DNA of 64,000 nucleotides. It comes from Leptospiraceae bacterium. GTDB lineage: Bacteria; Spirochaetota; Leptospiria; Leptospirales; Leptonemataceae. Made by a program: the position numbers and the translations under genes. Where the stretch lies: NCBI GenBank assembly GCA_040217195.1, contig JAVJNR010000002.1:1-64000 (forward strand). The letters are read 5' to 3'. The notes under the pieces are model-generated. The model was not told the DNA's origin. It was given only the letters and a program-made list of their open reading frames with translations, and made no database searches. Below, in pieces: positions 38,447 through 60,101 of the stretch (its first letter is position 1; every line of letters begins with the position of its first letter).

Positions 38447-38548
38447 AGAACCTCCTGAAATTCAGCCTCCAATGGGCTGCCTTTACCGGGAAAACGCAAT
38501 GTGCGCTTCCTGGTTACAGTAATGGGCGGAAAAAACCGCCCGAAATGG

Positions 38549-41500
38549 TCAGGCCTGGATTTCGCCGGATTTAATTAGAGTCTTCTCTTTCCACATTGTG
38601 TAGAGAACCGGATAGACCAGAAGTTCCAGAGCAAAGCTGGTAACCAACCCTCCAATCATGGGAGCTGCAATTCTTCGCATTAGATCTGAACCTGTGCCAT
38701 CGCTCCAGAGTATGGGAAGCAAGGCTACGAAGCCTGTGCCCACTGTCATTATCTTGGGGCGAACCCGGCGAACGGCACCGTGAAGAACAGCCTGCATTAA
38801 GTCATTTCGATCATTCAACAGCCCATTCTTCTTTCGATCATCCACAGAAATGTCCAGAAAGAGAAGCATGAAAGCTCCGGTTTCTGCATCCAGGCCCATC
38901 AAAGCTATCATCCCTACCCAGACTGCAATGGACATATTATAATCCAGAGCAAATAGAAGCCAGACCGCGCCCATAATACTGAATGGTAATCCCATCATTA
39001 TGATGGCTGTTTTGAACCAGTGTCTGGTGTTCATATACATGAGAGTCAGGATGATCAACAATGTGATTGGAATCACAACCATCATTCGCTGCGAAGCACG
39101 CTGCATATTCTCGTACTGACCGCTAAATCGATAGGAATATCCAGGGGGCAAATCCAGATTCGCCTGCAGGGCTTGCTTCGCTTTCATTACGTAAGTGCCA
39201 ATATCCACATTTTCGATGTCCACAAACACATAGCCTGAAAGTAGGCCATCTTCGTTACGGATCATACCTGGCCCTGAAACAATTTCAATGTGGGCCACCT
39301 GTGAAATTGGAATCTGGGCCCCACCGGGAGTAGTGACCAGAGTTCTACCCAGGTCTCGAATAGATTCCCGGGATTTTCGCTGATAGCGAACCTGAATGCT
39401 ATATCGTTCCCTTCCTTCCACAGTAGTACTTACATCCTGGCCTCCCACACCAATGCGAATAGACTTATGCAAATCACCGACAGTCAGTCCGTACCTGGCC
39501 ATCAATTCGCGATGAGGCACAATGTCGATGTAGGTTCCTCCGCGAACTCTCTCTGCATAGACGCTGCGGCTTCCTTCCAGCTTCTGAAGTATTTCTTCTG
39601 TTCTAACGGCGAGTCTTTCGATTTCTTTCAGATCACGGCCAAAGAATTTCACACCAATGGGTGTACGAATTCCAGTGGTTAGCATGTCAATTCGACCTCT
39701 TATGGGCATGGTCCAGGCATTGGTCCATCCGGGAAACTGCATGGCTTTGTTCATTTCCTCAGTAAGCTCTTTATACGATATTCGATCGGACCAGATCCAG
39801 CTAAATAGACCATGCATGAAATTCGGAAGAAAACTGTACCATCGCTCCTTCTTTCTCCATTCAGATTCTGGCTTGAGCATGACCGTAGTTTCGACCATTG
39901 ATAACGGGGCCGGATCTGTAGAGGTGTTGGCCCGACCAGCCTTGCCAAAGACTCGCTCTACTTCTGGAAATTGTTTTAAAACTCGATCCTGGACCTGGAG
40001 CATTCGCTGAGCTTCCGATGCGGAAAGACCGGGTACCGTGGTAGGCATATACAGAATCGTTCCTTCATTCAGCGGAGGCATAAATTCAGAACCCAGCCCC
40101 ATAAACAATGGAACCGTACCTAGCAGCAAGGCACCGGCGGTTACCAGGACCTGCTTTCTGAATTTCAAAACAAACAGACAGGCAGGCTCATAGATTCGGA
40201 AAAGAAACCGGCTAATGGGATGATCATCTTCCTTATGATATTTTCCTACAAATAGGGTCGTTGCCAATTTCGCAAGCCAGGCAGGCTGAAAATCGTACGG
40301 ACGATAACGGTTAAAGAGCATCTGAACGGCAGGGTTCAGTGTTATGGCAAGAAGAGCCGCAATAGCCATGGCCAGATTCTTGGAATACGCCAGGGGCTTG
40401 AATAATCGACCTTCCTGGCCCACCAGGGCAAAGATTGGCATGAAGGATACCGCGATTACCAGAAGCGAAAAGAATATCGATGGCCCCACTTCTTTCAAGG
40501 CTTCAATTCTTACGCGCATGAAATCTTTCTTGATTACTTCCGGATCCCGCTCATCCGAGCTTCCTCCATTGCCCGCTTCCTGCCACTGCTGGATTCGAGT
40601 ATAAATGTTCTCCACCTGAATAATTGCCCCATCCACCAGAACGCCTATGGATATGGCAATTCCGCCCAGACTCATAAGATTGGTGGTTACCCCGGTGAAA
40701 TACAGAGGCAGAAAAGAGAGAAAAACAGAGATGGGAATTGTAACTGCGGCGCTACTGGCAGAAGGAATATGCAACAGGAAAATAATGATCACAAGGCTGA
40801 CGATGATCATCTCTTCGATCAAGGTGCCTGTTATCGTGGATATGGCCTCATTAATCAATTCGGAACGATCGTAAGTAGGAACAATCTTCATTCCTTCTGG
40901 CAGGGAATCCTTTAAAGAATCGATTCGTTCTTTGACTCGATCAATCACATCCAGGGCATTTTCGCCGTCGCGCATCACGACAATGGCTCCGACCGTATCT
41001 CCCTTTCCGTCCAGATCGGCCACACCGCGCCGAATGTCCGGACCAAACTGAATATGAGCAACGTTTCGCAGCAGAACTGGATCGCCGGTCTTCGGATCTA
41101 CCTTTAGCACCACAGATTCCAGATCTTTCAAATCCCGGATATAGCCCCGACCCCGCACCATGTACTCCCGGCCGGCAAATTCCATAATTCGTCCGCCAGA
41201 TTCCATATTGGATTGCCGGATCGCTTCTACCACTCGATCCAGGGAGATGTTCAACGACTGAAGCTTTGTAGGATCAATCATTACCTGGTATTGCTTTTCA
41301 ACTCCACCTACAGCTGCGACCTCGGAAACGCCATCCACAGCCTGGATTTGATATTTAAGATTCCAGTCCTGGTAGCTGCGAAGATCGGCAAGACTGTTCT
41401 TTCCAGATTCATCCGTAAGTGCATATTGATAGACCCAGCCAAGAGCGCTGGCATCCGGTCCCAGCTCCACTGAAACCCCGTCCGGCAAATTCGGCTGCAC

Positions 41501-41845
41501 TTGCGATAGATATTCCAGAACTCTGCTGCGAGCCCAGTACAGGTCGGTTCCGTCTTCGAAGATTACATAGATGAACGAATTTCCATAGTCTGAAACGCCA
41601 CGAATGGTCTTTACCTTTGGCGCACCCAGCATCGCTGAAACGATGGGATAGGTGACCTGGTCTTCAATGATTCCCGGACTTTGATTCCATTTCGCGTATA
41701 CAATTACCTGAGTATCGCTCAAGTCCGGCAATGCATCCACCGGGATTTGCTTAATAGCCCAGTAGGATGCTCCCATGAGAAGAAGCACTCCGGCCAGCAT
41801 GGCATATTTTTGCCGGGCAGAGAATTCAATGATTCTGGCTATCAT
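38549..41845 (-). CDS. cusA: CusA/CzcA family heavy-metal RND permease
   Basis: DALPDLSDTQVIV, GPDASALGWVYQY, GSEFMPPLNEG, DPAPLSMVET, RVRPKIMT. Confidence 0.95.
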   Translation of the reverse strand: MIARIIEFSARQKYAMLAGVLLLMGASYWAIKQIPVDALPDLSDTQVIVYAKWNQSPGIIEDQVTYPIVSAMLGAPKVKTIRGVSDYGNSFIYVIFEDGTDLYWARSRVLEYLSQVQPNLPDGVSVELGPDASALGWVYQYALTDESGKNSLADLRSYQDWNLKYQIQAVDGVSEVAAVGGVEKQYQVMIDPTKLQSLNISLDRVVEAIRQSNMESGGRIMEFAGREYMVRGRGYIRDLKDLESVVLKVDPKTGDPVLLRNVAHIQFGPDIRRGVADLDGKGDTVGAIVVMRDGENALDVIDRVKERIDSLKDSLPEGMKIVPTYDRSELINEAISTITGTLIEEMIIVSLVIIIFLLHIPSASSAAVTIPISVFLSFLPLYFTGVTTNLMSLGGIAISIGVLVDGAIIQVENIYTRIQQWQEAGNGGSSDERDPEVIKKDFMRVRIEALKEVGPSIFFSLLVIAVSFMPIFALVGQEGRLFKPLAYSKNLAMAIAALLAITLNPAVQMLFNRYRPYDFQPAWLAKLATTLFVGKYHKEDDHPISRFLFRIYEPACLFVLKFRKQVLVTAGALLLGTVPLFMGLGSEFMPPLNEGTILYMPTTVPGLSASEAQRMLQVQDRVLKQFPEVERVFGKAGRANTSTDPAPLSMVETTVMLKPESEWRKKERWYSFLPNFMHGLFSWIWSDRISYKELTEEMNKAMQFPGWTNAWTMPIRGRIDMLTTGIRTPIGVKFFGRDLKEIERLAVRTEEILQKLEGSRSVYAERVRGGTYIDIVPHRELMARYGLTVGDLHKSIRIGVGGQDVSTTVEGRERYSIQVRYQRKSRESIRDLGRTLVTTPGGAQIPISQVAHIEIVSGPGMIRNEDGLLSGYVFVDIENVDIGTYVMKAKQALQANLDLPPGYSYRFSGQYENMQRASQRMMVVIPITLLIILTLMYMNTRHWFKTAIIMMGLPFSIMGAVWLLFALDYNMSIAVWVGMIALMGLDAETGAFMLLFLDISVDDRKKNGLLNDRNDLMQAVLHGAVRRVRPKIMTVGTGFVALLPILWSDGTGSDLMRRIAAPMIGGLVTSFALELLVYPVLYTMWKEKTLIKSGEIQA

Positions 41846-43128
41846 TGCGAATCCTCCATTTCCTCTCTTCCATCATCGTTACTCTGGTTGCCCCGAGGAT
41901 CCGCATTCGAATTACCATGCCCATTGCCGGAACCTGTGTTTTTTTCATTTTGTTTGCCAAACTGACGCAGAGACGTTTTTAATTGCGCTTCGGAGTCGAT
42001 TAGAAACGTTCCATGGTCTACGACCATTTCTCCTTCTTCCAGGCCTTCCAGAATAACTACCCCTTCATCCAGCTCTGGTCCGATTTCCACTTTTCTGACC
42101 TGGAGACGTCCTTCGCCTCTTTGAACAAAGACGTATCGCATTTCCCCATTATCCACAATAGCTGATCTCGGTACGATCAGTGAATCTCCCAGAGGAATTG
42201 AAATATCCACATGAACGAAAGAATCGGGACGTATTTCACCGCCAGCATTCTTGACCAGAATTCGGGCATCGATGGTGCGAGTAGTGGAACCTACCACCGG
42301 CGAAAGGGAAATCACTTCTCCGCGAAATCCTTCGCTTCGGGTACCGGGAATATGAACTCGTGCAATGTAACCTGGCTTTACGGACCCTACGTCGGACTCA
42401 TATAGAGTGGCATAAACCCAGACGGGCCCTCCATCTATGGGATTGTACAGACTTTCGTACGCAGCCCTGTAACGAGTAATATTAGCTATTTCGCGACCTC
42501 CCATACCCAGCAATTTGAGTCTGGAAACGGCCGCCTCTCGCAGAGAAGGATCCCGGTACACCATCAGGTATTCTTTTACGGCCACACCCAGTTCGGGGTC
42601 AAAAGCGCCACGACCGGTGGTCTCCAGATGGAAGCTTGCATCGATTCTTCGAACCGGACTGTAGGAAACCCCTATGAGCTGTTGCCGGTCGGCACTTACC
42701 GACACTGTGGGACCTGCGCTCATTGAGTCTTCTTCGTCAGAGTTTTCCCCTCCTGACTCAGGGCCGGATTCATGTTCTGAATGATCATGCCCTTCCAGCA
42801 TTACCGGCACAAGATCCATATTGCAAATAGGACACTGTCCGGGACGACTTTCTTTGATCTGAGGATGCATGGGACATGTATAATGTGAAATGCCCTGCTC
42901 TGCTAATTTCTCTTGATCTGTCTTTCCACAACCTGAAAACAGGATTGGCCCGCCCAGAAGAAGCAAACCTGAGAATATGGTCAGAAATCGAATGCGCATC
43001 GCTCTTTTTGAGAAGCCCTGATAAATTTGGCGCAACATAGGGAAGGCTGGATCGCATAGCTTTTGGGCCTGATATTTTTCAATGGCAGCCCCATGGCCAG
43101 CCGACGGGAATAGTTGCTTACTGCTCAT
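41842..43128 (-). CDS. cusB: CusB-like RND periplasmic adaptor with heavy-metal-binding domain
   Basis: YTCPMHPQI...CPICNMDL and FLIDSEAQLK; start may be further downstream (MRIRF). Confidence 0.9.
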   Translation of the reverse strand: MSSKQLFPSAGHGAAIEKYQAQKLCDPAFPMLRQIYQGFSKRAMRIRFLTIFSGLLLLGGPILFSGCGKTDQEKLAEQGISHYTCPMHPQIKESRPGQCPICNMDLVPVMLEGHDHSEHESGPESGGENSDEEDSMSAGPTVSVSADRQQLIGVSYSPVRRIDASFHLETTGRGAFDPELGVAVKEYLMVYRDPSLREAAVSRLKLLGMGGREIANITRYRAAYESLYNPIDGGPVWVYATLYESDVGSVKPGYIARVHIPGTRSEGFRGEVISLSPVVGSTTRTIDARILVKNAGGEIRPDSFVHVDISIPLGDSLIVPRSAIVDNGEMRYVFVQRGEGRLQVRKVEIGPELDEGVVILEGLEEGEMVVDHGTFLIDSEAQLKTSLRQFGKQNEKNTGSGNGHGNSNADPRGNQSNDDGREEMEDSQ

Positions 43129-44587
43129 CGATTCTCTCCTGTGAAGAAGCCAGCAAAGTGTTGGTCAGTTCGCTGCGGGCAATAATCCACATGGCCATTT
43201 GCTCTTCCAGAGCCAGCTTCTGTAGATTAACATTGTAATAGGCATTCCAGGACTGGATAACGCTGGTAAAGTCTGCCGATCCACCCTGATAGGACAGAAC
43301 AGATGAACGACGAGCCGTCCAGGCGTTAGGTACCAGGCGTGCAGAAAAAATCTGCTGTCTTGACCGACCTTTTCGAATGCGCTCATCCAGACTTTCGATC
43401 CGGGACAGTAACTGTTTTTTTACGTCCAGCTGCTCCAGCTGAGCCGCCTTTCGATCCTGGTTGGCCGCTTCCAGATTGTTGTGATTGGAAAGCCCGGACC
43501 AGATAGGAACTCGAATCTGAATTCCCAGCTTATAGGTTGTTTGCTTGCCGGTACCGGAAGGATATATGAGATTTCGATCCTCCTTGCCATAAGCTGCGAA
43601 GACTCCCAGGTCTGGCGCATAATCCAGCCTGGCCAGAGTATTCATGGACTCGGCCTGCTTTTGCATGGATCTTACTCTAGCCAGAGCAGGAAGATTTTCG
43701 ATTTGAAACCTACGGCCCTGCAACTCTCTGAGGTATTGTTGAAAGGGCTCCTTTTTTAGTAGAAGTGGATGCAAAGATGATTGGTCATCATTTTCTTTTG
43801 TGGGGTCTGAATTGGAGCCTTCCATGCGAAAATACTGCAGCTCATCCTTGATGGATTCCAATTCACCAAGTAGCATTTCCGCTCGTTCCCGAAATGTATC
43901 TGCCTGTACCCGTGCAAGGGACACATCCGAAAGACTACCCCGACCTGCTCCGTAACGGGCACGAGCAATCCCTTCCAGAGCTCCCGCAGCACCGGCCAGT
44001 TCTCTGGTAAGTCGCAAGCTTTCTTCTACTCGATGGTAGCGAGCGAGAAGCCCCAAAAGCTCACCCAGAGTTCTGTTTCGATTCATTAGAAATTCGAATC
44101 CCTTTTGATTGGCCCGATATTCCTCTACGTTGGATTTTGCCGTTAGTTTTCCGGGAAAAGGTATGGGCTGAGTGATTTGAACTTCATAGCTGCTAGCATC
44201 TTTCCGATTATAGCCGGTGGGGTAAGCAGCACGCTCTTCCTGGCTTCCGGAACCGCGGCTGATTCGCACTTCTGGATCCGGATAAACGAAATCAGAATAG
44301 GTTGCCCTGGACTCTTGCGCCGAATGACGGAGCTTTTCTTTTACAATGCCAGGATGACCCTGGACCTGCCTCCAGAGAGTTTTTTCGAACTCCGAAATGC
44401 TCTGTCCTGACTGCTCTTCCGAGCTACCGGATGAGTTCGAATTCTCGGCCAGGACTCCGGGCCCGGCCATGAATGTGATAAGGACAAGACAAAGACCTGA
44501 CCATCCGTGATTGAATCTTTTTACCGATGCAAATCTGCTTCGGTGGGGAATCCGAAATTTTTCGGATTCAGATTTATTTAAATACAT
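43118..44587 (-). CDS. TolC family outer membrane efflux protein (CusC-like)
   Basis: YPDP, QPIPFPGKL, ARYGAG, SYQGG; position in the RND operon. Confidence 0.88.
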   Translation of the reverse strand: MYLNKSESEKFRIPHRSRFASVKRFNHGWSGLCLVLITFMAGPGVLAENSNSSGSSEEQSGQSISEFEKTLWRQVQGHPGIVKEKLRHSAQESRATYSDFVYPDPEVRISRGSGSQEERAAYPTGYNRKDASSYEVQITQPIPFPGKLTAKSNVEEYRANQKGFEFLMNRNRTLGELLGLLARYHRVEESLRLTRELAGAAGALEGIARARYGAGRGSLSDVSLARVQADTFRERAEMLLGELESIKDELQYFRMEGSNSDPTKENDDQSSLHPLLLKKEPFQQYLRELQGRRFQIENLPALARVRSMQKQAESMNTLARLDYAPDLGVFAAYGKEDRNLIYPSGTGKQTTYKLGIQIRVPIWSGLSNHNNLEAANQDRKAAQLEQLDVKKQLLSRIESLDERIRKGRSRQQIFSARLVPNAWTARRSSVLSYQGGSADFTSVIQSWNAYYNVNLQKLALEEQMAMWIIARSELTNTLLASSQERIDEQ

Positions 44588-44626
44588 AGTAAGACTCCTG
44601 CTAAGAATGAATTTCTTGCAGGGATC

Positions 44627-45088
44627 TTAATTCAGGAACTGTTGATTCTGGATGTGTAATGGAATGCCCGGACTCGAGTCCGAGAGGATTGGTTCTTCAA
44701 GAAGGCCAGAGAGCCCTGATGTGAGATGAATCTCCGGTACGGCCAATCTCTGGAATATCAGTACAGGGCTGGCCAGTGCCGGCGTAAAAGGAGCCTCGGA
44801 AACGGTTTCGTCGTTGCAGCAACTGGCCCTGGAATCCGAATCCTTTGATTTGGATGGGTCAAACAGGGGTGCATCCAACAAATTGGGCGAGCCAATCAGT
44901 GCATCGGCTTTAGTATCGGATGAATTGTCCTGCGTGTCATGACAGGGAGCGCTCGTATGTGTGCTGGAATCCTCGGTCCAGGATTGAGCCACGGTGTTTG
45001 CGCACAATCCAGCCGGGCAGAACACCAACCGGAAAACTACAGCAGCCGCAATCAACGGCCCCGTGCTATTGTATACCAATTTACGCAC
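44627..45088 (-). CDS. Hypothetical Cys/His-containing protein heading the metal-efflux operon
   Basis: N-terminal hydrophobic segment, PCH and SCC motifs, Pro-rich C-terminus. Confidence 0.55.
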   Translation of the reverse strand: MRKLVYNSTGPLIAAAVVFRLVFCPAGLCANTVAQSWTEDSSTHTSAPCHDTQDNSSDTKADALIGSPNLLDAPLFDPSKSKDSDSRASCCNDETVSEAPFTPALASPVLIFQRLAVPEIHLTSGLSGLLEEPILSDSSPGIPLHIQNQQFLN

Positions 45089-45169: not shown

Positions 45170-46201
45170 TTACTGGCAGGTTCCCGTCATGGTGAGATTG
45201 GTTCCTGCGCTGGCCACTGCAACGATCCTGTCATTGTGGAATCCCATCCCATTCCAGCTATTGGCCTCGGGAGCACCCTGGCCAATCCAGGTATTGGCGT
45301 CTGACGAAGTCATTATCGGATTCGTACCAGTTCGTGCCACTGCAACGAATTTTCCATTTGCAAATACGATGTCCTGCCACTCGTTTTGCTCCGGACTGGT
45401 TCTTGCAAACCAATCCTTTCCGTTTCTTGAGACCATTATTCTGGATACTCCGTCTCTGGCCACCGCGACGAATATCCCATCCCCGAATGCTATTGCTTTC
45501 CAATAATTGACTTCGGGAGCGGAATACTGTTCCCAATTTACACCGTCGAATGACCTAATCACTACGCCCGCGGTACTGTCGACGGCCACAAACATTCCGT
45601 TCCCAAATGTAATGGAACGATATTCAAAAGCGGGAGGGGCAGACGCAGACCAGCTAATTCCATCACTGGAGCTCATGGCCCGATTCGTTCCATCTCTGGA
45701 TACAGCAACAAAACGACCATTTCCGAAGGCTATGGATTGCCATTGATTCGCAGCAGTAGGTGACCTGGCAGTCCAGGTGAGTGCATCAATGGAAGTGTAG
45801 AGCTGGTTGGCTCCACCATTTCCCAGAATAACAATTCTTCCATTTCCTTCAGCCAGATCGATAAATGCTCCGCCAACTCCGAGGCCGCCATCTACCCACG
45901 TTTTCCCATCGATTGCCGTCATACTACGATCAGGAGTACCGGTTGAGGAAACGGCGACAAACCGATCGATACCAAACTGAACCGCATTCCAGCCCTGGGT
46001 AGCCGTGGCCGGGTTTACCTCAAAGGAAAAGTTAAGATATTTGCAGCGACCCGGAACCTTTGTAAGAAGGAATGCCTGAGGTAATGCGGAACATCCCGGA
46101 TCTTCAGGCTGGCAGGAACCGGAAGGCTCACAGCCTGACAAGAAGACCAGAGAGGCAGCAACTGTTGCAAGAATACTCTTTTTCCAGACACCGTATTTCA
46201 T
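45170..46201 (-). CDS. Lipoprotein with seven repeats of about 40 aa (probable beta-propeller, Asp-box-like)
   Basis: Lipobox FLSGC; repeated WxxIAFGNGxFVAV...SxDGxxW. Confidence 0.8.
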   Translation of the reverse strand: MKYGVWKKSILATVAASLVFLSGCEPSGSCQPEDPGCSALPQAFLLTKVPGRCKYLNFSFEVNPATATQGWNAVQFGIDRFVAVSSTGTPDRSMTAIDGKTWVDGGLGVGGAFIDLAEGNGRIVILGNGGANQLYTSIDALTWTARSPTAANQWQSIAFGNGRFVAVSRDGTNRAMSSSDGISWSASAPPAFEYRSITFGNGMFVAVDSTAGVVIRSFDGVNWEQYSAPEVNYWKAIAFGDGIFVAVARDGVSRIMVSRNGKDWFARTSPEQNEWQDIVFANGKFVAVARTGTNPIMTSSDANTWIGQGAPEANSWNGMGFHNDRIVAVASAGTNLTMTGTCQ

Positions 46202-46489
46202 CGTTTTCAAAGGGAACCCTGGTCTCGGTCGGATTCCAAAATCGGAACAGGGACAACCTGAAGCTTCCCTTATTGAAATACAGTCCCTCCGTAATCCGAC
46301 TCGCTCAGGCTAACGTCCTGGTTTCTTTAATGCAACCATTTTGTTGCCCGGATAGAAGGATAAAGCGGCCAAAACCCGGGTGTTCTTGGGGCTCAGGAAG
46401 GATTTAGAGTTCTGATCCAGGCGGAGCTTCGGGGGCATCCATGGCACGAGACCGTTTCCCCCGATGGTTCCGATTTCTGGAGTCATTAA

Positions 46490-48295: not shown

Positions 48296-48319
48296 TCCGT
48301 AGAAGACTCCAATTCTGGG

Positions 48320-48347
48320 AAGGCGCCGCATTTGTGGCGCCTTTTTT
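48320..48347 (+). terminator. Rho-independent terminator
   Basis: AAGGCGCCGCA-TT-TGTGGCGCCTT stem followed by a T-run. Confidence 0.85.
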
Positions 48348-48550: not shown

Positions 48551-51229
48551 TTGACCCATCGGAAATCCTGGCAAATTCCAATGATCCGGTTTACAGCTAA
48601 ATATATCGCGGGTGCCCGCACCTGTCTACTGTCGCTGATTTCTCTATTTATTTTCCCTCTTTCTATTCAGGCAGAGAAAAACCCAATTCCGTTTCCGGTT
48701 GCCATTGAAAACCATCGATCAGCATCCGGTGAGCAGTACCCTGCTGCTTTTCATTATTATCTGGATAAAAAATCCCTTTCTCTAAGTGATATACAGGATC
48801 TACCGATTGAAAGCTGGAACAGCGTTAGCAGCAAAGACATTAATAAGGGATACACAAGCTCAATTCTCTGGATCAGGATCCAGGCAATCAATGAATCCGA
48901 TGAGATCCTGGCCGTATTTCTGGAAGAAGATTTCACTCTAATTCGAAACATTCAAGCCACAGTCATCGCCGCGAATGGCTCCCGTAATCAGTCCTTTCTG
49001 GATCGCACTAAAGAGTTTAATGAGAGGGCAGTGCACTTTGCCAATCCTGTGCTTCCCATTGAGCTTCCTCCCGGTAAGTCCACCATCTATGTAAGGCTTC
49101 AGTCTGACATGGATATGATCGCTGCACTTCAATTCTGGAGCCCGGAAGGACTTAAAGAAGATGCGAAAAGCAGGCTTCTATTATTCGGAATTTTGTATGG
49201 ATCTGTGTTACTGATGGCACTATACAACGGTTTGATCTGGCTTTCCCTTAAGGACCGGACGTATCTGCTGTATGCACTCTACAGCCTTGCTTTTCTATTC
49301 TACTTTCTATCCTACTACGGGCATGGGGCTCAATTTGTCTGGGGACACTGGCCCTGGTTTGAGCAACGGGCGGTGCCCATTGTAATGGCAATTCAAATAG
49401 GGGTTTTTGGAGCCGAGTTCTTTCGCCTATTTCTCTCTATCGATGAAAGACATCCGTGGCAGTATCGATCCCTGCGCTTCATTCAAATCTTCAGTATTGG
49501 CTTACTGATAGCAAGCTTCACTATTCCACCGGCCCGAGTTATTGTTGTATATCCAATTTATGCCATCTGTGCTATTTTGCTCATCGCAGCCATATCTATT
49601 ATCCGCTATCGCCAGGGTTTCCAGCCGGCCATCTTTTCTATCTTTGCATTCCTGATATTGTGGGTATCCGGAATCGGGTCCTCCTTACGAAGCCTGGGCA
49701 TTGTTCCTTACAACGACATCACAATGTACGGTGTGGCTTTCGGAAATGTTGCCGAGCTATTACTACTCTCCTTTGGCCTGGGTTACAGACTCCGAAAACT
49801 GGAAGATGAAACTGCAAACACCGGAAGGAAAAATCAGTCTCTCACTGGTTTGCTGCAGGGACTTCCTTATGCCATCTTGCTTCGCCAGGATAAATCGCTG
49901 ATCTTTGCCAACCGAGCAGCCCACGATCTGTACAGAGACCGGAATCTTCCAGACTGGCAGGATTCCGGTATTCATGCCTTTCGACATATGCAAAAGGATC
50001 GCTGGATTGCCGTGCATGTAGCACAAATCGAGATAGAAGGCAAACCGGCCAGACTACAATTCCATTCAGAGATTACAGAGGAAATGGAAAGCAAATTAGC
50101 CCTGGAAGAAAAGCACACTTCTACAATGGAGGCCAGGGATCAGTCCGAGGAAAACCGCCAATCCCAGGATGAATTTCTGCAATCCATGACTACAGAAATT
50201 CGTAAACCTATGTCTGCCGTGTATCAGGCTGCGGACGTCTTAAATCAACTGAATCTGAATCCGGACCAGAAGGAGCTGGCAGGCATCCTGTTAAGAAGTG
50301 CAAGTACGCTCATTTCCCTGTTAAACGACCTGGCCGATCTATCCAGGCTGGAGAGCGGTCGAATCGCTATCAATCCCATGCCCTGTAATCCTCGGCAGGC
50401 AGTGAATGACACCGCGGAGCTCTTTCGGACGGCAGCCCAGAGCAAAGGACTGAGTCTGGAAGTGATCGCAGAGGGGCTTCCCGGTGAATTGATGCTGGAT
50501 GCCGCCCGGGTACAACAGGTATTGAGCAACCTGGTTAGCAACGGAGTCAAGTTCACCGATCAAGGAGCCATTCAGATTCGTGCCAAATATTTGAACCAGG
50601 GCGGTTCCGGCCAGGGCGTGGATGGATCCGGGCCATCCGGGCAACTTCAGATTTCAGTGGCCGACCAGGGACCGGGCATTCCGGAAGAGAAAATGCATCG
50701 ATTGTTTCGCCGGTTTGAACAACTGGATCCAGGAACCTATCGCCGCTTTGGAGGTACGGGCCTGGGACTTGCCATTAGCAGAGGGATGGTGGAATCCATG
50801 GGCGGCCAGATTGGCTGCGAAAATCTACCGGAAAGAGGAAGCCTGTTCTGGTTCAAAGTGCCCGCTTCCATTGTCTCTCGTTCCGGTGGAGCCAGCAAGA
50901 AAGAGACTCAGACGTCCCTGAAAGGAATAGTATGTGGTTTAACCATCGCTACGGATGATTCAACCGAAATGCTCGAAAGCCAACTAAAACTGCTGGGAAT
51001 ACAGGTTGTAAGACTGGATGGAACCGATACCAGTCACAGTCGGCAGGAAATGGATTTTATGATCGTTGAAGAATCCAGTAGCAATATCGCAATACCTGCA
51101 ATACTCTGGAATGCAACGGCAGAGCACTCAGGAAATTTTTCAGGACCAATTGTCACTCCTCCCTGTTCCACGAAGGACCTGGAAGACTCGATTCGAGAAT
51201 TGCTTCAGGCCCGAGGAAGGTTATCGTAA
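48551..51229 (+). CDS. 7TM-DISM sensor kinase-like protein lacking the phospho-acceptor His (DISMED2-7TM-PAS-HisKA*-HATPase-pseudoREC)
   Basis: H-box reads MTTEIRKPM; intact N (NLVSNGVKFT), G1 (DQGPGI), F and G2 (GGTGLGL) boxes; start may be the ATG at 48581. Confidence 0.9.
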   Translation: MTHRKSWQIPMIRFTAKYIAGARTCLLSLISLFIFPLSIQAEKNPIPFPVAIENHRSASGEQYPAAFHYYLDKKSLSLSDIQDLPIESWNSVSSKDINKGYTSSILWIRIQAINESDEILAVFLEEDFTLIRNIQATVIAANGSRNQSFLDRTKEFNERAVHFANPVLPIELPPGKSTIYVRLQSDMDMIAALQFWSPEGLKEDAKSRLLLFGILYGSVLLMALYNGLIWLSLKDRTYLLYALYSLAFLFYFLSYYGHGAQFVWGHWPWFEQRAVPIVMAIQIGVFGAEFFRLFLSIDERHPWQYRSLRFIQIFSIGLLIASFTIPPARVIVVYPIYAICAILLIAAISIIRYRQGFQPAIFSIFAFLILWVSGIGSSLRSLGIVPYNDITMYGVAFGNVAELLLLSFGLGYRLRKLEDETANTGRKNQSLTGLLQGLPYAILLRQDKSLIFANRAAHDLYRDRNLPDWQDSGIHAFRHMQKDRWIAVHVAQIEIEGKPARLQFHSEITEEMESKLALEEKHTSTMEARDQSEENRQSQDEFLQSMTTEIRKPMSAVYQAADVLNQLNLNPDQKELAGILLRSASTLISLLNDLADLSRLESGRIAINPMPCNPRQAVNDTAELFRTAAQSKGLSLEVIAEGLPGELMLDAARVQQVLSNLVSNGVKFTDQGAIQIRAKYLNQGGSGQGVDGSGPSGQLQISVADQGPGIPEEKMHRLFRRFEQLDPGTYRRFGGTGLGLAISRGMVESMGGQIGCENLPERGSLFWFKVPASIVSRSGGASKKETQTSLKGIVCGLTIATDDSTEMLESQLKLLGIQVVRLDGTDTSHSRQEMDFMIVEESSSNIAIPAILWNATAEHSGNFSGPIVTPPCSTKDLEDSIRELLQARGRLS

Positions 51230-51231
51230 CC

Positions 51232-53400
51232 GTGGCATTCGCTGAAATCCAGAACCAGGCGATGATTCAGGGCCTGATCTATGGCGCCACACTGATACTG
51301 TTTCTCTATAATGTTTTTCTTGCCATCTCTACAAGAGATTCGATCTATCTAAACTACTCTGCACTTTCTATTTCAGTACTGTTCTACCAGCTTTTGCTCT
51401 TTCATGGAACGTCTCTCGGATTTCAGTCCCGGGCATGGCATCAGCTCCTGGTGGTACTGACGATCCTTCTGGCCACCGGTGTCCTGGGTACTCACTTCCT
51501 TCGTCAATTGCTGGCCCTGGATCCAGCGTCCGGTGCCGATCGATTGGCCCGGGCTTCCATGTTGGCCTTTGCCATATTGATGGTATTTGTCTCAATGTTC
51601 CGGCAGACCGTGGGACCTTACGTTTATGCCCTGGGTCTGATTCCAGTAGTACTGTTTGGATATATTTCAGCCGACCGGGCAAGACTGGGTTCAAAAACAG
51701 CTGCAGCAGTATTCCTTGGTCTGCTCATCGCCCTTGTGTCCGGTACCGCGCATCAATGGATTGAATGGCAGGCAATTCGCAACTCTACAACACAGCTGAT
51801 CCTTCCGCTGGGAGCCCTGGGGACCTTGCTGCTTTTTTCCGTTGGCCTTGGACTCAGGATTCGATCCATTCGCCTGGAAGCTCTGACCGGACGCAACCGA
51901 GCCGAATTCTTGAAGAATCTTCTGGAAGCCTCTCCATTTCCGGTGATGGTACTTCGTAAGCCCTTTTCAGAGCCCATCTTCTGGAATCAAGCGGCGCAAA
52001 ATCAGTATGAACTGAACTCTTCCTGGTCACTGGCCAGCCATCTTTCCGCCGATGTAGCAGAACCATTAAACCGGGAAATCGAAGGAGGAGACCTGGATCG
52101 AAGACTGGTTACTGTAAATAATCAGGCCGGACGGACTCTGGAGACAGCTATCTCTGTGCGAAGGATCAAGTTTGAGGGCCAGGCTGCTTTTCTACATTTA
52201 CATGTGGATCGCACCGCCGAACTTCAAACCCGAAGGGGACTGGAACGAGAGCAATTAGCATTGCAGGAAGCGGTGGATGAGCTGCAAAAAACTACACAGC
52301 AAAGGGATGATTTCATAGCGGCCATGAGTCATGAAATTCGCACGCCAATGTCCGGTATACTCTCTGCCGCCGATCTTCTTCAAGAGTCCAACCTGATCGC
52401 GGAAGCTCCTGCAGGTTCTTCTGGAAAAATTTCCGGTCCATCCGTTTTACAGGTACTGCAGCGAAACGCACTGAGACTTTTGCATTTGTTAAATGACATA
52501 CTGGACTTTGCTCGCATTCAGGCCGGCCGAATGGATCCGGATCCCCACAGATTTTCTCTTCATGATTTTGCTCAATCCAGTATCGACAAACTGGAGCCAT
52601 TGTTAAGCCGAGCCAACCTCAAGCTGGAGTACGTTCACTCCGGAAATGGTGATGAAGTTTTGCGGGGCGACGCGGCACGTATGAGACAGATTCTGGAACG
52701 ATTTGCATTTTCCCTGCTCAGCAGTCGCAGGGATGGTACAATCCGCGTAAATAGTTACCTGACCCCGGACAGGCGACTGCACTTTGAAGTCAGCCTGGAT
52801 GGACGGGCCCTGGTGGGAGCGGATCCAAAGCTAATTCAAAGGATAGCAGGCAGCCCCTACGGTTACAGGCCTCGCACCGGTCGTGAACTTAGCCTGGCAG
52901 TGGCCCGCGGTTTGATCAAAACCCTGGGAGGTCATCTGGAGATATCTGAAACCACTGATTCTGCATTGAGCATGTCGGTTTCTTTTCCGGTGGAAATCGA
53001 AGCCCACCAATCCGCCCGTAAAATGGGGGCTGAGCTGCCTCTCAACCTCCTGGTTTTTGAGGACAATGCAGACAATGCAGTATTGATGAAACGAATTCTG
53101 GAAAAGCGAGGTTACAGGGTTCACATTGCCTCATCGGCTGCAGAAGGATTGGAAATTCTCAAAAATGATAGGCCTGACCTGGTTCTTATGGATCTGCATT
53201 TGCCCGACATGGATGGCTTTCAGACCACGCAAGAGATTCAAAAGTCTTTGGGCAAGGAGGCCCCGCCGGTGGCAGCCCTGAGCGCCTCTACTATGGAACG
53301 GGATCGACTAGCCGCTCAGGAAGTGGGCATGGTCGGCTTTTTGACAAAACCCATCCAGAAAGAACAGTTTGAATCCCTGATTCAGGAACTATTCAGCTAA
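51232..53400 (+). CDS. 7TM-DISM hybrid kinase-like protein with intact H-box and receiver but degenerate ATP-binding domain
   Basis: MSHEIRTPM; N/G1/F/G2 boxes eroded; REC ED...LVLMDLHLPDMDG...SA...KP. Confidence 0.9.
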   Translation: MAFAEIQNQAMIQGLIYGATLILFLYNVFLAISTRDSIYLNYSALSISVLFYQLLLFHGTSLGFQSRAWHQLLVVLTILLATGVLGTHFLRQLLALDPASGADRLARASMLAFAILMVFVSMFRQTVGPYVYALGLIPVVLFGYISADRARLGSKTAAAVFLGLLIALVSGTAHQWIEWQAIRNSTTQLILPLGALGTLLLFSVGLGLRIRSIRLEALTGRNRAEFLKNLLEASPFPVMVLRKPFSEPIFWNQAAQNQYELNSSWSLASHLSADVAEPLNREIEGGDLDRRLVTVNNQAGRTLETAISVRRIKFEGQAAFLHLHVDRTAELQTRRGLEREQLALQEAVDELQKTTQQRDDFIAAMSHEIRTPMSGILSAADLLQESNLIAEAPAGSSGKISGPSVLQVLQRNALRLLHLLNDILDFARIQAGRMDPDPHRFSLHDFAQSSIDKLEPLLSRANLKLEYVHSGNGDEVLRGDAARMRQILERFAFSLLSSRRDGTIRVNSYLTPDRRLHFEVSLDGRALVGADPKLIQRIAGSPYGYRPRTGRELSLAVARGLIKTLGGHLEISETTDSALSMSVSFPVEIEAHQSARKMGAELPLNLLVFEDNADNAVLMKRILEKRGYRVHIASSAAEGLEILKNDRPDLVLMDLHLPDMDGFQTTQEIQKSLGKEAPPVAALSASTMERDRLAAQEVGMVGFLTKPIQKEQFESLIQELFS

Positions 53401-53871: not shown

Positions 53872-54361
53872 ATGTCTTCTATTCGGTCCGCTCCGCCTGG
53901 TATCCTCACTGTCGGTCTCTGTGTTACCCTATTCTTTTCTGGATGAGGACCATTTCCAGGGCGGGTCAAACCTGGATCGATTGTATGTTGAGCCCATGCG
54001 AGATTATATAACCTGGCCTCTGCGTATGCCTTTCGAAAAGCACCTCATTTACCACGGAAAGCAGACTCTCCAGGGTGAGGAATACTTCACATTTTTCCTG
54101 TCTTCCAGTAGTCCGGCCGATCGGAAGGGCGATCAGTATCGCCTGTATCTAAGCACAGATAACCTGAGAATTCGGTTCATCCAGTTTACACTTCGGGAAC
54201 TGGCAGATTCCTATTCCGGCTGGATTCACTATTCCAATTATGTGTCCATCGAGGGCATACGGATTCCCTTTCAGATTTCCATTCAAGACAGCCCTTCTCT
54301 GGATTCAGATGAGTACGTTCATCGAATCGAACTACAAGATGCGGTTTTCTCCCGGGAATGA
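53872..54361 (+). pseudogene. Probable internally deleted lipoprotein gene (C-terminal part DUF6503-like)
   Basis: Signal peptide MSSIR...LFFSG ends in TGA (53944-53946) at the lipobox Cys position; protein-like sequence continues in another frame to 54361. Confidence 0.5.
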
Positions 54362-56401: not shown

Positions 56402-56663
56402 TTCGGAGACAGTAAGCAGATCCGGACCTTTTACATCTCAGAAATCTGATCCAGACATTTTCCGGAAAATATCAGATATCCGCACAGTTCAGGAAAAACA
56501 CCGGAAATCCATACTCAATCGCTGTATTCATTTTTCCGGAGCGTAGCCAGCTATAGTGCTCAAATTCCTTGATGAATTGGAAAGGGAAATGCAAAAAGGG
56601 GAACAGAACTGGTTGAATAGACGTCCAACTATTAAAAGAGAAGCTATAGCTCCGGAGAAAACC

Positions 56664-57161
56664 ATGAAAAAGATCAATCTAATACTATCACTGGCAATAT
56701 CTGCCTCACTGCTGCTTACAGGCGCTGTATTCGCAGAAACCCTGTACGTAGTCAGTCCAGCAGCCAAATTGCTGAAAGAGCCCAAAATGAATTCCACAGG
56801 ACCTGCACTGAAACCAGGCACCCAGGTAAACAGTAGCGGCCAACAGGGTATGTTTGTTCAAGTACAGAGCCCGCTTGGTTCTGGATATGTCTCCAAACTG
56901 TTCGTATCCAAGTACGCTCCCACCGGAAAAGTGGACACTACCAAGATTAAACTGAACCAGCAAGTGGCCACCCGGGATAAAGCATCTGCCTACAGTGAAA
57001 CCGCTGCGGCCCGTGGCTTTTCTCAGGGAACCGAAGAAAGATTCGATAATCCAGAAGCCTTCGATTTTTCTGAGGTAGATTGGATCGAGAAACAGAAACC
57101 GAACCAAAAACAAGTGGACATTTTCCTCCGCCAGGGAAAGCTCCATAAGTTTGGATCATGA
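56664..57161 (+). CDS. Exported SH3-like domain protein
   Basis: Signal peptide ending AVFA; YV...AKLLKEP...GYVSK; ETAAARG motif; GGAG RBS. Confidence 0.75.
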   Translation: MKKINLILSLAISASLLLTGAVFAETLYVVSPAAKLLKEPKMNSTGPALKPGTQVNSSGQQGMFVQVQSPLGSGYVSKLFVSKYAPTGKVDTTKIKLNQQVATRDKASAYSETAAARGFSQGTEERFDNPEAFDFSEVDWIEKQKPNQKQVDIFLRQGKLHKFGS

Positions 57162-57901
57162 GGTTTCATAGTAAGTTCTATAATCAACACAAAGCCGTAG
57201 TCCAGAGAGCTACTGCTTCCCTTTTTGCGCTGGGTTTTGTCCTGATGACAGCCCAGTGTACCTCTCTCAGCCCCAAAGAACGCAGCCTCCGAGAGGTTGC
57301 GGTGGGTCGAGCCCTCACAGCCCGCTTTGCCAAAAGCGAAGGCATCGTAAAAAACACAGCTGCAACATCCTACATTTCTCTGGTAGGTCAGGCAGTAGTA
57401 GAAGCATCCGGGCAGGGTGATAAAGACTTTCATTTTGCCATTCTGGATTCAGATAAACCAATTGCTGTAGCTGGCCCTGGTGGCTATGTGCTGATCAGCA
57501 AGGGGTATATAAAGAGTCTCTCCTCTGAGGCGGAACTGGCAGCCGTGCTGGCACGAGAAGTGGCACATATTGCCATGGCCCACCACGATGACTCGGTGCT
57601 CACCGATGGATCGCTAATAGAAACGTCGGAATCTGGCTCAGAAGAGCTGTTCCAGACTATTCAAGACGGCACTCGCCCGGCCGAACAGGTATACGAAGCG
57701 GACGCTGCGGCTGCCTTCTATCTGGCTACCCTGGGATACGATCCTGCAGTTCTGGTCCGTGTAGTGGACCTGGGCACTCCGCAGAAGAATGCTCCGGGCG
57801 CACAGCGTCAGGGAAAAATAAAGACTGTAATTGAACAAAACGGCCTTTCCGGACAGCAGACCAATACGGCCAGATTCCAGGCCAGTACACGGGGTCTGTA
57901 A
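57158..57901 (+). CDS. M48 metallopeptidase-like lipoprotein lacking zinc ligands
   Basis: FHFAILD...PGGYVLISKG, EAELAAVLAREVAH, VYEAD, GYDP. Confidence 0.82.
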   Translation: MRFHSKFYNQHKAVVQRATASLFALGFVLMTAQCTSLSPKERSLREVAVGRALTARFAKSEGIVKNTAATSYISLVGQAVVEASGQGDKDFHFAILDSDKPIAVAGPGGYVLISKGYIKSLSSEAELAAVLAREVAHIAMAHHDDSVLTDGSLIETSESGSEELFQTIQDGTRPAEQVYEADAAAAFYLATLGYDPAVLVRVVDLGTPQKNAPGAQRQGKIKTVIEQNGLSGQQTNTARFQASTRGL

Positions 57902-57902
57902 T

Positions 57903-60101
57903 ATGTTCAAAAACAAGAAGGTCTGGTTTGGACTCCTGACCATCGTTCCAATCGTATTTGTACTGGTGCTCCATGCATTTGGAGCACTGGCCCGTGTTGA
58001 AAACAACATCACCGATTTAAGGTACGTATTCTTCAATCCAGGCCATAAATTCAGCGAAGATATTCTGGTCCTGGAAATTGATGAACAGTCCCTGCAGAAG
58101 CTCGGTCAGGATCCCATCTATGGGCGCTGGCCATGGAAGAGAAATGCCTACGTTCCTCTGCTGGAATTTGTAGCTCAGTTTGGAGCTCAAAAAATCCTAT
58201 TCGACGTTACCTTTTTCGAAGAAAGTCCGGAAGATGAAGCACTGGCCGCTGTAGGCGAAGCCATCCCTGTTATATCTCATGCCCTGAACTTTAGAAATGA
58301 GGACATAGATCAAGAAGCTCGCCCATTACCGGGAATTGTTCAGGCCCAGGCCATCCCCTATGAAGGCCCGGAAACCGTTTCCCAATCTTACAACAAAGTA
58401 ATCTATCCTGCCCGAGAAATCCTGGAAACACTTCCTGGTGCGCACTCAGTAACTTTTCATCCAGATTCAGATGGCGTTGCTCGAAGAGCAAGACACCTGT
58501 TCAAGTACGGCGATCGATACTATCCCTCCCTGTCTCTGGCAGCTGTAGCACCGCTTATTGGTCTGCAGTCCGTATCCATGGAGGGACAGAAGCTAGTTCT
58601 TCAGACGGCTGAAGGGCCCAGAAACATCCCTGTAGAGGATGGAGCGGTAAGATTTCATTATTATCCGGAATCCGAGCTCTACAGCAATATGAAGCGATAC
58701 TCCATCACATCGCTTATCGAAACCAAGATTGCAATCGACAAAGGAGAGTTCACATCGCTGGAGGATCTAAAATTCAATCCTCTAGAGCTTCAGGGCAAGA
58801 CTGTCATTATTGGTGCCACAGCAGCAGCCACCCATGATGTGAAAACCACTCCATATGGAAGCATGCCCGGGGTATTTCTCCATGCTATACTGGCCTCGAA
58901 TATTCTGCAGAACCACTTTCTAACAGTCATGAGTCCCTGGTTTGCTCTGATTGCACTGATTCTTCTAGTGCCCGTTGCGAACTATCTGGTCATCTATACT
59001 CACGGTCTTGCTGGCCGAGTCATTTTTCCAGCTTTGATGCTAATCCTCATCGCTGCCATTTCTATGGTGGCCTTTCAATTCTTTGATACTCTGATTCCGC
59101 TGGCAGGGTTTTTGATTGGATTCCCTTTAGCTTTTGGCGGTTCCGTGGCCTATCTGAGTTTCACAGAAGGACTGGAGAAACGAAAGTTTAAATCAGCCAT
59201 GTCCAAGTATCTATCTCCTGCAGTGCTGGAAGATGTGATGAAGCGCGGCCAATTGCAGGCCGAAATCGGTGAACGAAAGAACATGACTGTGATGTTTACC
59301 GATATTCGTTCCTTCACCACCATGGCTGAAGGTATGGATCCTGCCACAGTTGTGCATATTCTGAATGAATACCTGGACCGAATGGTGCATGTGGTGTTCG
59401 AAGAAGAAGGCACCCTGGATAAGTATATCGGCGATGCAATAATGGCTTTCTGGAATGCTCCCTTGAATCAAACAGACCATGCAACCCGAGCCGTGCGCAC
59501 TGGACTGGGAATGCTTTATGAGCTGCATCTACTTCATGAGCGCTGGAAGCAGGAAGGAGCCCCGCTACTTCGAATGGGCATTGGAATTCATACAGGAGAA
59601 ATGATCGTCGGAAATATCGGATCCAATCAGCGGCTGGACTATACTGTAATCGGGGATAATGTAAATCTGGGTTCACGTCTGGAAGGAATCACTAAAACCT
59701 ATGGAGTGGATATGCTGATCAGCGAAGCCACCCAGAAAGCTATGGTTTCGGAAGAAAGCGATACTCTTCCCTGTCGACTCATTGATCTTGTAGCAGTTAA
59801 AGGTAAATCCATTCCCATTGCAGTCTACGAACCTCTTCCTGCAGAGGGTGGCCAGAGAATGAAATCCGTGAATAACTCAGTCTATGCTGCCAGGTTCAAT
59901 GAAGCTTTTGATCATTACAGAAATCGTCGATGGGACGATGCAATTTCAATGTATGAAAGCTTCCTTTCGGATGCCGCCGAAAACCCTACCCGGCCCGGTC
60001 CCGATCATCCAACCACATTGATGATTGAGCGATGTAAACAGTACAAGGCAAGTCCACCTCCTGAAAACTGGGATGGCTCCTTTGTAATGACTACGAAATA
60101 G
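57903..60101 (+). CDS. CHASE2-domain class III adenylate cyclase
   Basis: IDEQS...GRWPW, DSDG, PGVFLHA (CHASE2); FTDIRSFT, DKYIGDA, DYTVIGDNVNLGSRLE, VKGK. Confidence 0.93.
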   Translation: MFKNKKVWFGLLTIVPIVFVLVLHAFGALARVENNITDLRYVFFNPGHKFSEDILVLEIDEQSLQKLGQDPIYGRWPWKRNAYVPLLEFVAQFGAQKILFDVTFFEESPEDEALAAVGEAIPVISHALNFRNEDIDQEARPLPGIVQAQAIPYEGPETVSQSYNKVIYPAREILETLPGAHSVTFHPDSDGVARRARHLFKYGDRYYPSLSLAAVAPLIGLQSVSMEGQKLVLQTAEGPRNIPVEDGAVRFHYYPESELYSNMKRYSITSLIETKIAIDKGEFTSLEDLKFNPLELQGKTVIIGATAAATHDVKTTPYGSMPGVFLHAILASNILQNHFLTVMSPWFALIALILLVPVANYLVIYTHGLAGRVIFPALMLILIAAISMVAFQFFDTLIPLAGFLIGFPLAFGGSVAYLSFTEGLEKRKFKSAMSKYLSPAVLEDVMKRGQLQAEIGERKNMTVMFTDIRSFTTMAEGMDPATVVHILNEYLDRMVHVVFEEEGTLDKYIGDAIMAFWNAPLNQTDHATRAVRTGLGMLYELHLLHERWKQEGAPLLRMGIGIHTGEMIVGNIGSNQRLDYTVIGDNVNLGSRLEGITKTYGVDMLISEATQKAMVSEESDTLPCRLIDLVAVKGKSIPIAVYEPLPAEGGQRMKSVNNSVYAARFNEAFDHYRNRRWDDAISMYESFLSDAAENPTRPGPDHPTTLMIERCKQYKASPPPENWDGSFVMTTK

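Follow-up and report, generated by a model that had tools for sequence, protein, structure and literature searches.

How can two neighbouring histidine kinases be functional if each of them has lost the half of the chemistry that the other one kept? This question is raised by two genes, here named A and B, on contig JAVJNR010000002.1 of a Leptospiraceae bacterium (assembly GCA_040217195.1), of which the first 64,000 nucleotides (the window) were analysed. A previous interpretation made from the letters alone, the sequence-only reading, had described A and B as two co-oriented, intact frames 2 bp apart, coding for 7TM-DISM kinases that were candidates for a split heterodimer acting in trans. 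The gene structure was confirmed: both frames are open, the spacing is 2 bp, and Pfam found the expected domains in both proteins, with weak PAS matches (E 0.085 in A, 0.018 in B). A has 892 amino acids (aa) counted from a TTG codon, the database representative has 882 aa and starts at an ATG ten codons downstream, and B has 722 aa. As to function, we consider it fairly likely that A and B form a heterodimeric kinase with a single active site, in which A senses and phosphorylates a His of B in trans and B passes the phosphate to its own receiver.

According to the sequence-only reading, A carries Thr in place of the phospho-accepting His next to complete ATP boxes and B carries a canonical His and receiver next to eroded ATP boxes; all of these motifs are present (Table 1). 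The same split was found in all six lineages available for each protein. The phospho-His position of A is occupied by T, A, V, L, V and V (His in 0/6), and the N, G1 and G2 boxes are present in 6/6, with the lid/G2 stretch reading TYR[RK][FY]GGTGLG throughout. B has SHEIRTPM as well as the acidic pair, Asp, Ser and Lys of the receiver in 6/6; N-box Asn, DxGxG and GxGLGL were found in 0/6. The claim that each protein lost what the other one kept holds in 6/6 lineages per protein but was incomplete, as A additionally lost the Thr at H+4, where K, K, R, L, K and R are found (Thr or Asn in 0/6). This Thr belongs to the phosphatase motif HExxT, which B retains. A degenerate receiver had also been claimed for A; its Lys is indeed missing in 6/6 lineages, but the reported loss of the acidic pocket depends on the alignment, with a DD pair two residues off. 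Judged from these motifs, His and ATP site lie on separate proteins, the arrangement of a split kinase. Among the 44 kinase cores of the genome, an intact H-box without N, G1 and G2 boxes was found in B alone and, since the pattern recurs in relatives, it is not explained by chance.

Both defects are conserved together and under purifying selection. The ratio of nonsynonymous to synonymous substitutions (dN/dS) between the genomes G002 and G005, the sole unsaturated pair, amounts to 0.17 in A and 0.11 in B, and even the dead catalytic and ATP-binding (CA) domain of B has a dN of 0.017 at a dS of 0.20. Between species, synonymous sites of A and B are close to saturation. Both evolve faster than their surroundings: the identities between this genome (G000) and G002 are 63% and 55%, respectively, versus 81-94% for neighbouring genes. 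The A/B pair is a real, conserved and selected feature.

The proportion of invariant columns was higher in A than in B for the 7TM domain (49% vs 13%) and the CA domain (36% vs 19%), higher in B for the receiver (7% vs 44%) and helix 1 of the dimerisation and histidine phosphotransfer (DHp) domain (39% vs 71%), and equal for DHp helix 2 (45% vs 45%); with six lineages per protein these percentages are coarse. The pattern appears to track the proposed phosphate path. The membrane domain is the best-conserved part of A and the least conserved part of B, and A looks like the only sensor of the pair. A two-input AND gate, as proposed before, was rejected, because conservation in B is lowest on the sensor side, which mostly lacks an extracellular domain. 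The absence of this domain from B was found in 5/6 lineages; in the remaining one (G001, L024:6524-6955), B carries an N-terminal extension of ~130 aa that weakly matches, in register, the final part of DISMED2 (hhalign E 0.016, probability 2.9%).

The order DHp, CA and receiver was found in both proteins by Pfam, hhalign and predicted folds, with the receiver degenerate in A and the CA domain in B, and neither chain has His plus N, G1 and G2 boxes, as a canonical class I hybrid kinase does. The CA domain of B matched HATPase_c only with E 3e-4 and 21.6 bits, below the cut-off of 26.4, and its fold is retained in predicted models; a Foldseek search with the B model led to generic kinases. For the pseudo-receiver of A no Response_reg match was found in Pfam, and the strand/helix pattern of a receiver is present in a low-confidence predicted model (mean pLDDT of the A model 59.5). 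The sensor of A, 7TM plus DISMED2, is of the LadS/RetS type, and B has the 7TM part alone. RetS is a 7TM-DISM hybrid. Pfam found no Hpt or CheW match in A or B, and no regulator or cognate receiver gene was found beside the pair. The terminator-like hairpin upstream of A suggests that A-B may start their own transcript; a promoter scan gave no signal exceeding shuffles.

Table 1 Features of the A-B locus (positions in the window; domain matches from Pfam; invariant columns among six lineages)
Feature	Position	Strand	Evidence or remark
Terminator-like hairpin 3' of the upstream acyltransferase gene	48317..48346	+	pattern match only
Gene A: DISMED2, 7TM, shortened PAS, DHp (no His), intact CA, pseudo-receiver	48551..51229	+	proposed sensor/ATP-using subunit
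A: extracellular 7TMR-DISMED2, aa 71-197	48761..49141	+	PF07696 E 8.6e-19; 39/127 columns invariant
A: 7TM-DISM membrane domain, aa 209-413	49175..49789	+	PF07695 E 3.5e-42; 101/205 columns invariant
A: DHp (HisKA) helices	50165..50359	+	PF00512 E 8e-10
A: Thr548 (ACA) in MTTEIRKPM, at phospho-His position	50192..50194	+	sequence
A: intact CA domain	50498..50866	+	PF02518 (HATPase_c) E 2.9e-25; N-box Asn pair, DxGxG, F-box and GGTGLGL in 6/6
A: reduced pseudo-receiver, collinear with B receiver, without Lys	50918..51214	+	7/99 columns invariant
Gene B: 7TM, PAS, DHp (His), degenerate CA, receiver	51232..53400	+	proposed phospho-accepting/relay subunit
B: fast-evolving 7TM-DISM without extracellular domain	51259..51852	+	PF07695 E 1.1e-19; 26/200 columns invariant
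B: DHp	52300..52527	+	HisKA E 7.7e-17; helix 1 with 20/28 columns invariant; SHEIRTPM in 6/6
B: His367 (CAT) in MSHEIRTPM, predicted phosphorylation site	52330..52332	+	sequence
B: CA fold lacking the N, G1 and G2 boxes	52669..52992	+	YRPxxxRELxL in place of G2 in 6/6
B: canonical receiver; E610/D611, D654 (53191-53193), S684, K706	53050..53382	+	PF00072 E 3.9e-25

A and B are adjacent in 5 of the 7 genomes of the genus (G000, G001, G002, G004 and G005), with identities of 45-63% for A and 42-55% for B in the four of the six other genomes that have them, and a start/stop overlap or 2-bp gap was found in 5/5. In the assembly of G003, which is 78% complete, the genes on either side share a single contig and both kinases are absent from the syntenic site; an unrelated 481-aa lipoprotein-like hydrolase gene is found there on the minus strand (L164:7353-8798). 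G006 (58% complete) is uninformative, since the whole locus is missing from the assembly. When 156 genomes of the order were searched (7 of the genus and 149 others, the top candidates per genome being scored), the sensor region of A was found at orthologue level in five (E 5e-131 or better; next best 6.5e-45) and the dead CA domain of B in the same five (E 1.2e-20 or better; next best 3.8e-7); no orthologue of either gene was found among the top candidates of the 149 others. The genes were thus adjacent in 5/5 genomes having either of them, with a single origin, so that these cases are not independent.

A protein collection contained six clusters each for A and B, and no further family-level members were found in the 50% representative library. 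In an additional lineage, P0128, P0277 and P0280 share a contig and bear consecutive locus tags. The evidence for adjacency comprises the five genomes and this lineage, and the lineage P0127/P0008 stands outside the count. The named homologues are proteins of metagenome-assembled genomes of Leptospiraceae or Spirochaetaceae, annotated as "hypothetical protein" or "response regulator", and the host probably belongs to an uncultured genus of the Leptospirales. A metagenome scan with generic H-box patterns gave at least 80 loci, which had best-segment identities of 23-38% and are apparently generic kinases. Downstream of B (53939-54343) lie the C-terminal 138 aa of a gene that codes for 252-257 aa and is complete upstream of A in G002, G004 and G005. 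Because of this displaced fragment, and because the dS of A and B is near saturation versus ~1-1.5 for neighbours, A and B may have relocated together.

As the simplest account, A and B appear to derive from duplication of a complete 7TM-DISM hybrid kinase. Their profiles align over the full length, TM1 through C-terminus (hhalign, 651 columns, E 5e-53). In a careful tree of the 7TM domain (34 rows: 12 family members, P0131/P0132, 4 proteins of this genome and 16 random ones, with four long rows omitted), A and B group with the intact kinases P0131/P0132 with 98/98 support; a first, quick version had comprised 92 rows. No intact P0131-like gene was found at E 1e-90 in the 156 genomes with six candidates scored per genome. 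With the PAS-linker profile of A, B members made up three of the first four outside matches, and with that of B, A members came after one unrelated protein. The linkers between TM7 and PAS (26 aa) and between PAS and His (39 aa) are equal in 12/12 proteins, which is required by a heterodimer yet also explained by shared ancestry.

How would the pair work? The closest solved relative of the A core is GacS (7z8n, E 1e-43), which is reported to autophosphorylate in trans, with a His mutant and a G2 mutant complementing each other in vitro (PMC8498467). In a trans dimer, each site consists of the His of one chain and the ATP domain of the other, so that a heterodimer can lose one site and still work, and the losses in A and B seem to be those of one site of such a dimer. 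As GacS is the nearest solved relative, acts in trans and has complementing mutants, phosphorylation of His367 of B by A is favoured, the trans mode of A/B being suggested by likeness to GacS. A would detect a cue outside the cell or in the membrane and relay it down the paired helical linkers, and the ATP-binding domain of A would phosphorylate His367 in trans. The phosphate would then move from His367 to Asp654 of B and presumably to an unlinked Hpt protein, and the mirror site, where the lost His of A faces the dead ATP domain of B, would be silent. The genome has two stand-alone Hpt genes elsewhere (C5:343501-343914 and C7:78533-78898) and two proteins with fused Hpt, and since Hpt matches were found in 7/7 genomes of the genus, no specific partner can be named. 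HExxT is cited as a phosphatase motif (PMC3591291) and is retained by B, so that free B or a B:B dimer could be a phosphatase; the earlier statement that homodimers are inert was too strong in this respect. A and B probably work only as a pair, since they lost opposite halves of the chemistry and the same split is retained in relatives.

A complex prediction with A 503-778, B 322-722, ATP and Mg scored 0.26 against a mark of 0.32 with unfolded controls and was not used as evidence, and a scoring of heptad charges in AA, BB and AB coiled coils gave outcomes that varied with the register chosen. The trans heterodimer put forward by the sequence-only reading is supported by the conserved defects, the translational coupling, the joint absence, dN/dS, the linkers, the trans mode of GacS and the FasB/FasC precedent (see below). 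The data establish the domain anatomy of A and B, the reciprocal loss of motifs and its conservation, the linkage, the purifying selection and the common ancestry of the two, whereas the A:B dimer, phosphorylation in trans, the step from His to Asp inside B, the Hpt output, the phosphatase role and the ligand are inferred. More speculatively, the dimer may be fixed in a permanent asymmetry, with sensor and ATP site on A, and His, phosphatase motif and receiver on B, and with the dead ATP domain of B, which has new invariant Arg-rich motifs, re-purposed as a docking or regulatory surface; A:B would be the kinase and free B the phosphatase, the A/B ratio would set a switch-like response, and the phosphate would take a trans-then-cis route. 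The pair would then be a natural one-site kinase on which half-of-sites activity could be tested. This extended version we regard as tentative and, taken as a whole, rather unlikely.

Several observations weigh against an A:B kinase. Three further kinase-like proteins that lack the His but have N, G1 and G2-like boxes, overlooked before, are conserved in the genus (in 3, 4 and 4 of the 5 genomes searched); none of them has a B-type neighbour in this genome, and they also occur in G003, where A-B is absent, and the persistence of such lone proteins means that retained ATP boxes do not need a B-type partner. DivL is described as having kept all boxes, yet as binding ATP weakly and having no kinase activity (PMC4211667), so that intact boxes need not imply catalysis. 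With the receiver on B alone, the model needs a trans-then-cis route; BarA is reported to act in trans at all three steps, including His-to-Asp transfer, and none of ArcB, EvgS and BarA is reported to be trans-then-cis (PMC4734776). RedE, as described, does not autophosphorylate and takes its phosphate from the receiver protein RedD (PMC2755868). A retains the Glu after the His position in 6/6 lineages, which the heterodimer does not require. All cases of linkage stem from one event in one genus and tandem duplicates are adjacent by origin, hence linkage and co-loss are not independent evidence, and counts over six lineages are small. Finally, the 7TM tree places A, with weak support (83/63), beside P0131/P0132 instead of B, the inner order being weak, and a quick kinase-core tree (75 rows) did not resolve A versus B. 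As to the three proteins themselves, L165 (C1:723221-724405 of this genome) is a soluble DHp-CA-receiver protein, L166 (C6:106053-109352) a 7TM-DISM protein with receiver and, as read from sequence, a C-terminal phosphatase-like domain, and L167 (C6:118029-119996) a membrane protein; all are His-less in the orthologues checked, G003 included. A further kinase-like protein (C5:206056-208881) is degenerate in both parts.

Could A and B then have separate jobs, A as a DivL-like pseudokinase or partner of an unlinked complete kinase and B as a RedE-like His phosphotransferase or phosphatase fed by another receiver, adjacent through tandem duplication and a shared pathway? Solitary His-less kinases that keep their ATP boxes are frequent in the genus, RedE and DivL are described as functioning in this manner (PMC2755868, PMC4211667), and the 44 kinase cores of the genome offer possible partners for A or B. 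We nevertheless regard separate jobs as unlikely, because they leave unexplained why each module was kept in exactly one copy, why the linkers are equal in 12/12 proteins and why start and stop are tightly coupled in 5/5 genomes; moreover, the sole His-intact, ATP-dead core of the genome adjoins a His-less one, and no cognate receiver gene lies near A-B. A heterodimer that is not a net kinase would avoid the trans-then-cis difficulty: A would gate a phosphatase or phosphate-sink activity of B (Hpt to Asp654 to His367), or the phosphate of His367 would go to an outside regulator, as in multikinase control of the RetS type. B retains HExxT and a highly conserved receiver, and RetS is reported to heterodimerise via DHp and to drain phosphate (PMC12189002, PMC8498467), but the ATP lid and G2 box of A are canonical in 6/6 lineages, which holds less well for two of the three solitary His-less proteins; this fits catalysis and makes an arrangement without net kinase activity distinctly improbable. 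That both genes are decaying duplicates, reciprocal by chance, is in line with their faster divergence compared to the neighbours, with the dispensability of the pair in G003 and with an assembly in which A is in two pieces (P0128 and P0277), though a full-length A (P0278) is found within the same cluster. Frames that have stayed open although identities are down to 41-64% and synonymous changes are close to saturation, the dN/dS of 0.11-0.17 and motifs invariant even within the dead CA domain of B largely refute neutral decay, which was rejected as very improbable. A frameshift or assembly artefact was rejected as well, since the frames are open in five genomes.

How does the A:B kinase compare with known systems? 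A literature search, not aimed at this lineage and covering few subscription journals, did not find a reciprocally degenerate pair of HisKA hybrids. HK1/HK2 (Rv0600c/Rv0601c) with TcrA of Mycobacterium tuberculosis is a system of two kinase genes and one regulator. HK1 is said to provide the ATP-binding half and HK2 the half with the His, which would make them complementary fragments and not a pair of full-length paralogues. The nearest precedent, FasB/FasC of group A Streptococcus, was missing from the sequence-only reading, which had cited others. These co-transcribed membrane kinases are reported to give a two-hybrid signal for the heterodimer alone, FasC contributing a required His and having a dispensable kinase domain, so that one protein gives the kinase domain and the other the His; this is reported without in vitro kinase assays, and a second His in FasB was not excluded (PMC12675982). 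The A/B defects differ in being written in the sequence, and the sensor seems to be on the ATP-using subunit A, whereas in Fas it is proposed for the His carrier FasC. A and B are 7TM-DISM hybrids of the HisKA type whose receiver is fused and which have no regulator gene beside them, whereas Fas, as described, has six-TM kinases and the ComE-like FasA (PMC12675982); by architecture and gene neighbourhood, A/B lie outside the FasBC family proper.

In CheA3/CheA4 of Rhodobacter sphaeroides, too, His and ATP domain are reported to be on separate proteins, neither autophosphorylates alone and the His carrier can be a phosphatase (PMC3591291), features that A/B would share on sequence grounds. CheA3/CheA4 are described as class II, with Hpt (P1) as the acceptor, entire domains lacking and a transient contact (PMC3591291), whereas A/B are class I, lack Hpt P1 and a CheW-like domain, and keep all domains, reciprocally dead, so that a stable DHp bundle is expected. 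The same source counts 711 HisKA proteins without HATPase domain as possible split kinases (PMC3591291). RetS-GacS of Pseudomonas aeruginosa resembles A/B as a DHp-DHp heterodimer of two hybrid kinases with GacS acting in trans, but is described as inhibitory, with both partners homodimerising and genes that are not a reciprocally defective tandem pair (PMC8498467). DivL resembles A in its replaced His and retained ATP boxes; it is reported to have a conserved Tyr at this site, where the residue of A drifts, and no complementary paralogue is described alongside (PMC4211667). RedE resembles B in keeping its His without autophosphorylation; its HATPase domain is described as conserved, again with no complementary paralogue described alongside (PMC2755868).

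Other features of the window are a minus-strand metal-efflux cluster (36317-45088, read from sequence), which contains a P-type ATPase with a His-rich GHGDHS repeat at the N-terminus, CusA/B/C-like genes and a gene for a small Cys/His protein. The efflux genes occupy syntenic positions in relatives. A gene for a beta-propeller-like lipoprotein (45170-46210, DUF6242 match) is absent at the same place in G002, G003, G004 and G005. Consecutive genes for an SH3-like protein, an M48-like peptidase and a CHASE2-adenylate cyclase-like protein (56556-60101, from sequence) are kept in G002, G004 and G005.

Textbook sensor kinases are homodimers, and in the databases A and B are labelled a hypothetical protein and a response regulator. 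The reach of the finding is limited to one uncultured genus, but if the proposed A:B kinase is real, the pair would be a natural complementation of a His mutant by an ATP mutant, with one active site per dimer. The asymmetry of kinase dimers would become testable without engineered heterodimers, as would the switch-like behaviour predicted for split kinases, as reported (PMC3591291), and the FasB/FasC arrangement would be extended to HisKA hybrids with a fused receiver.

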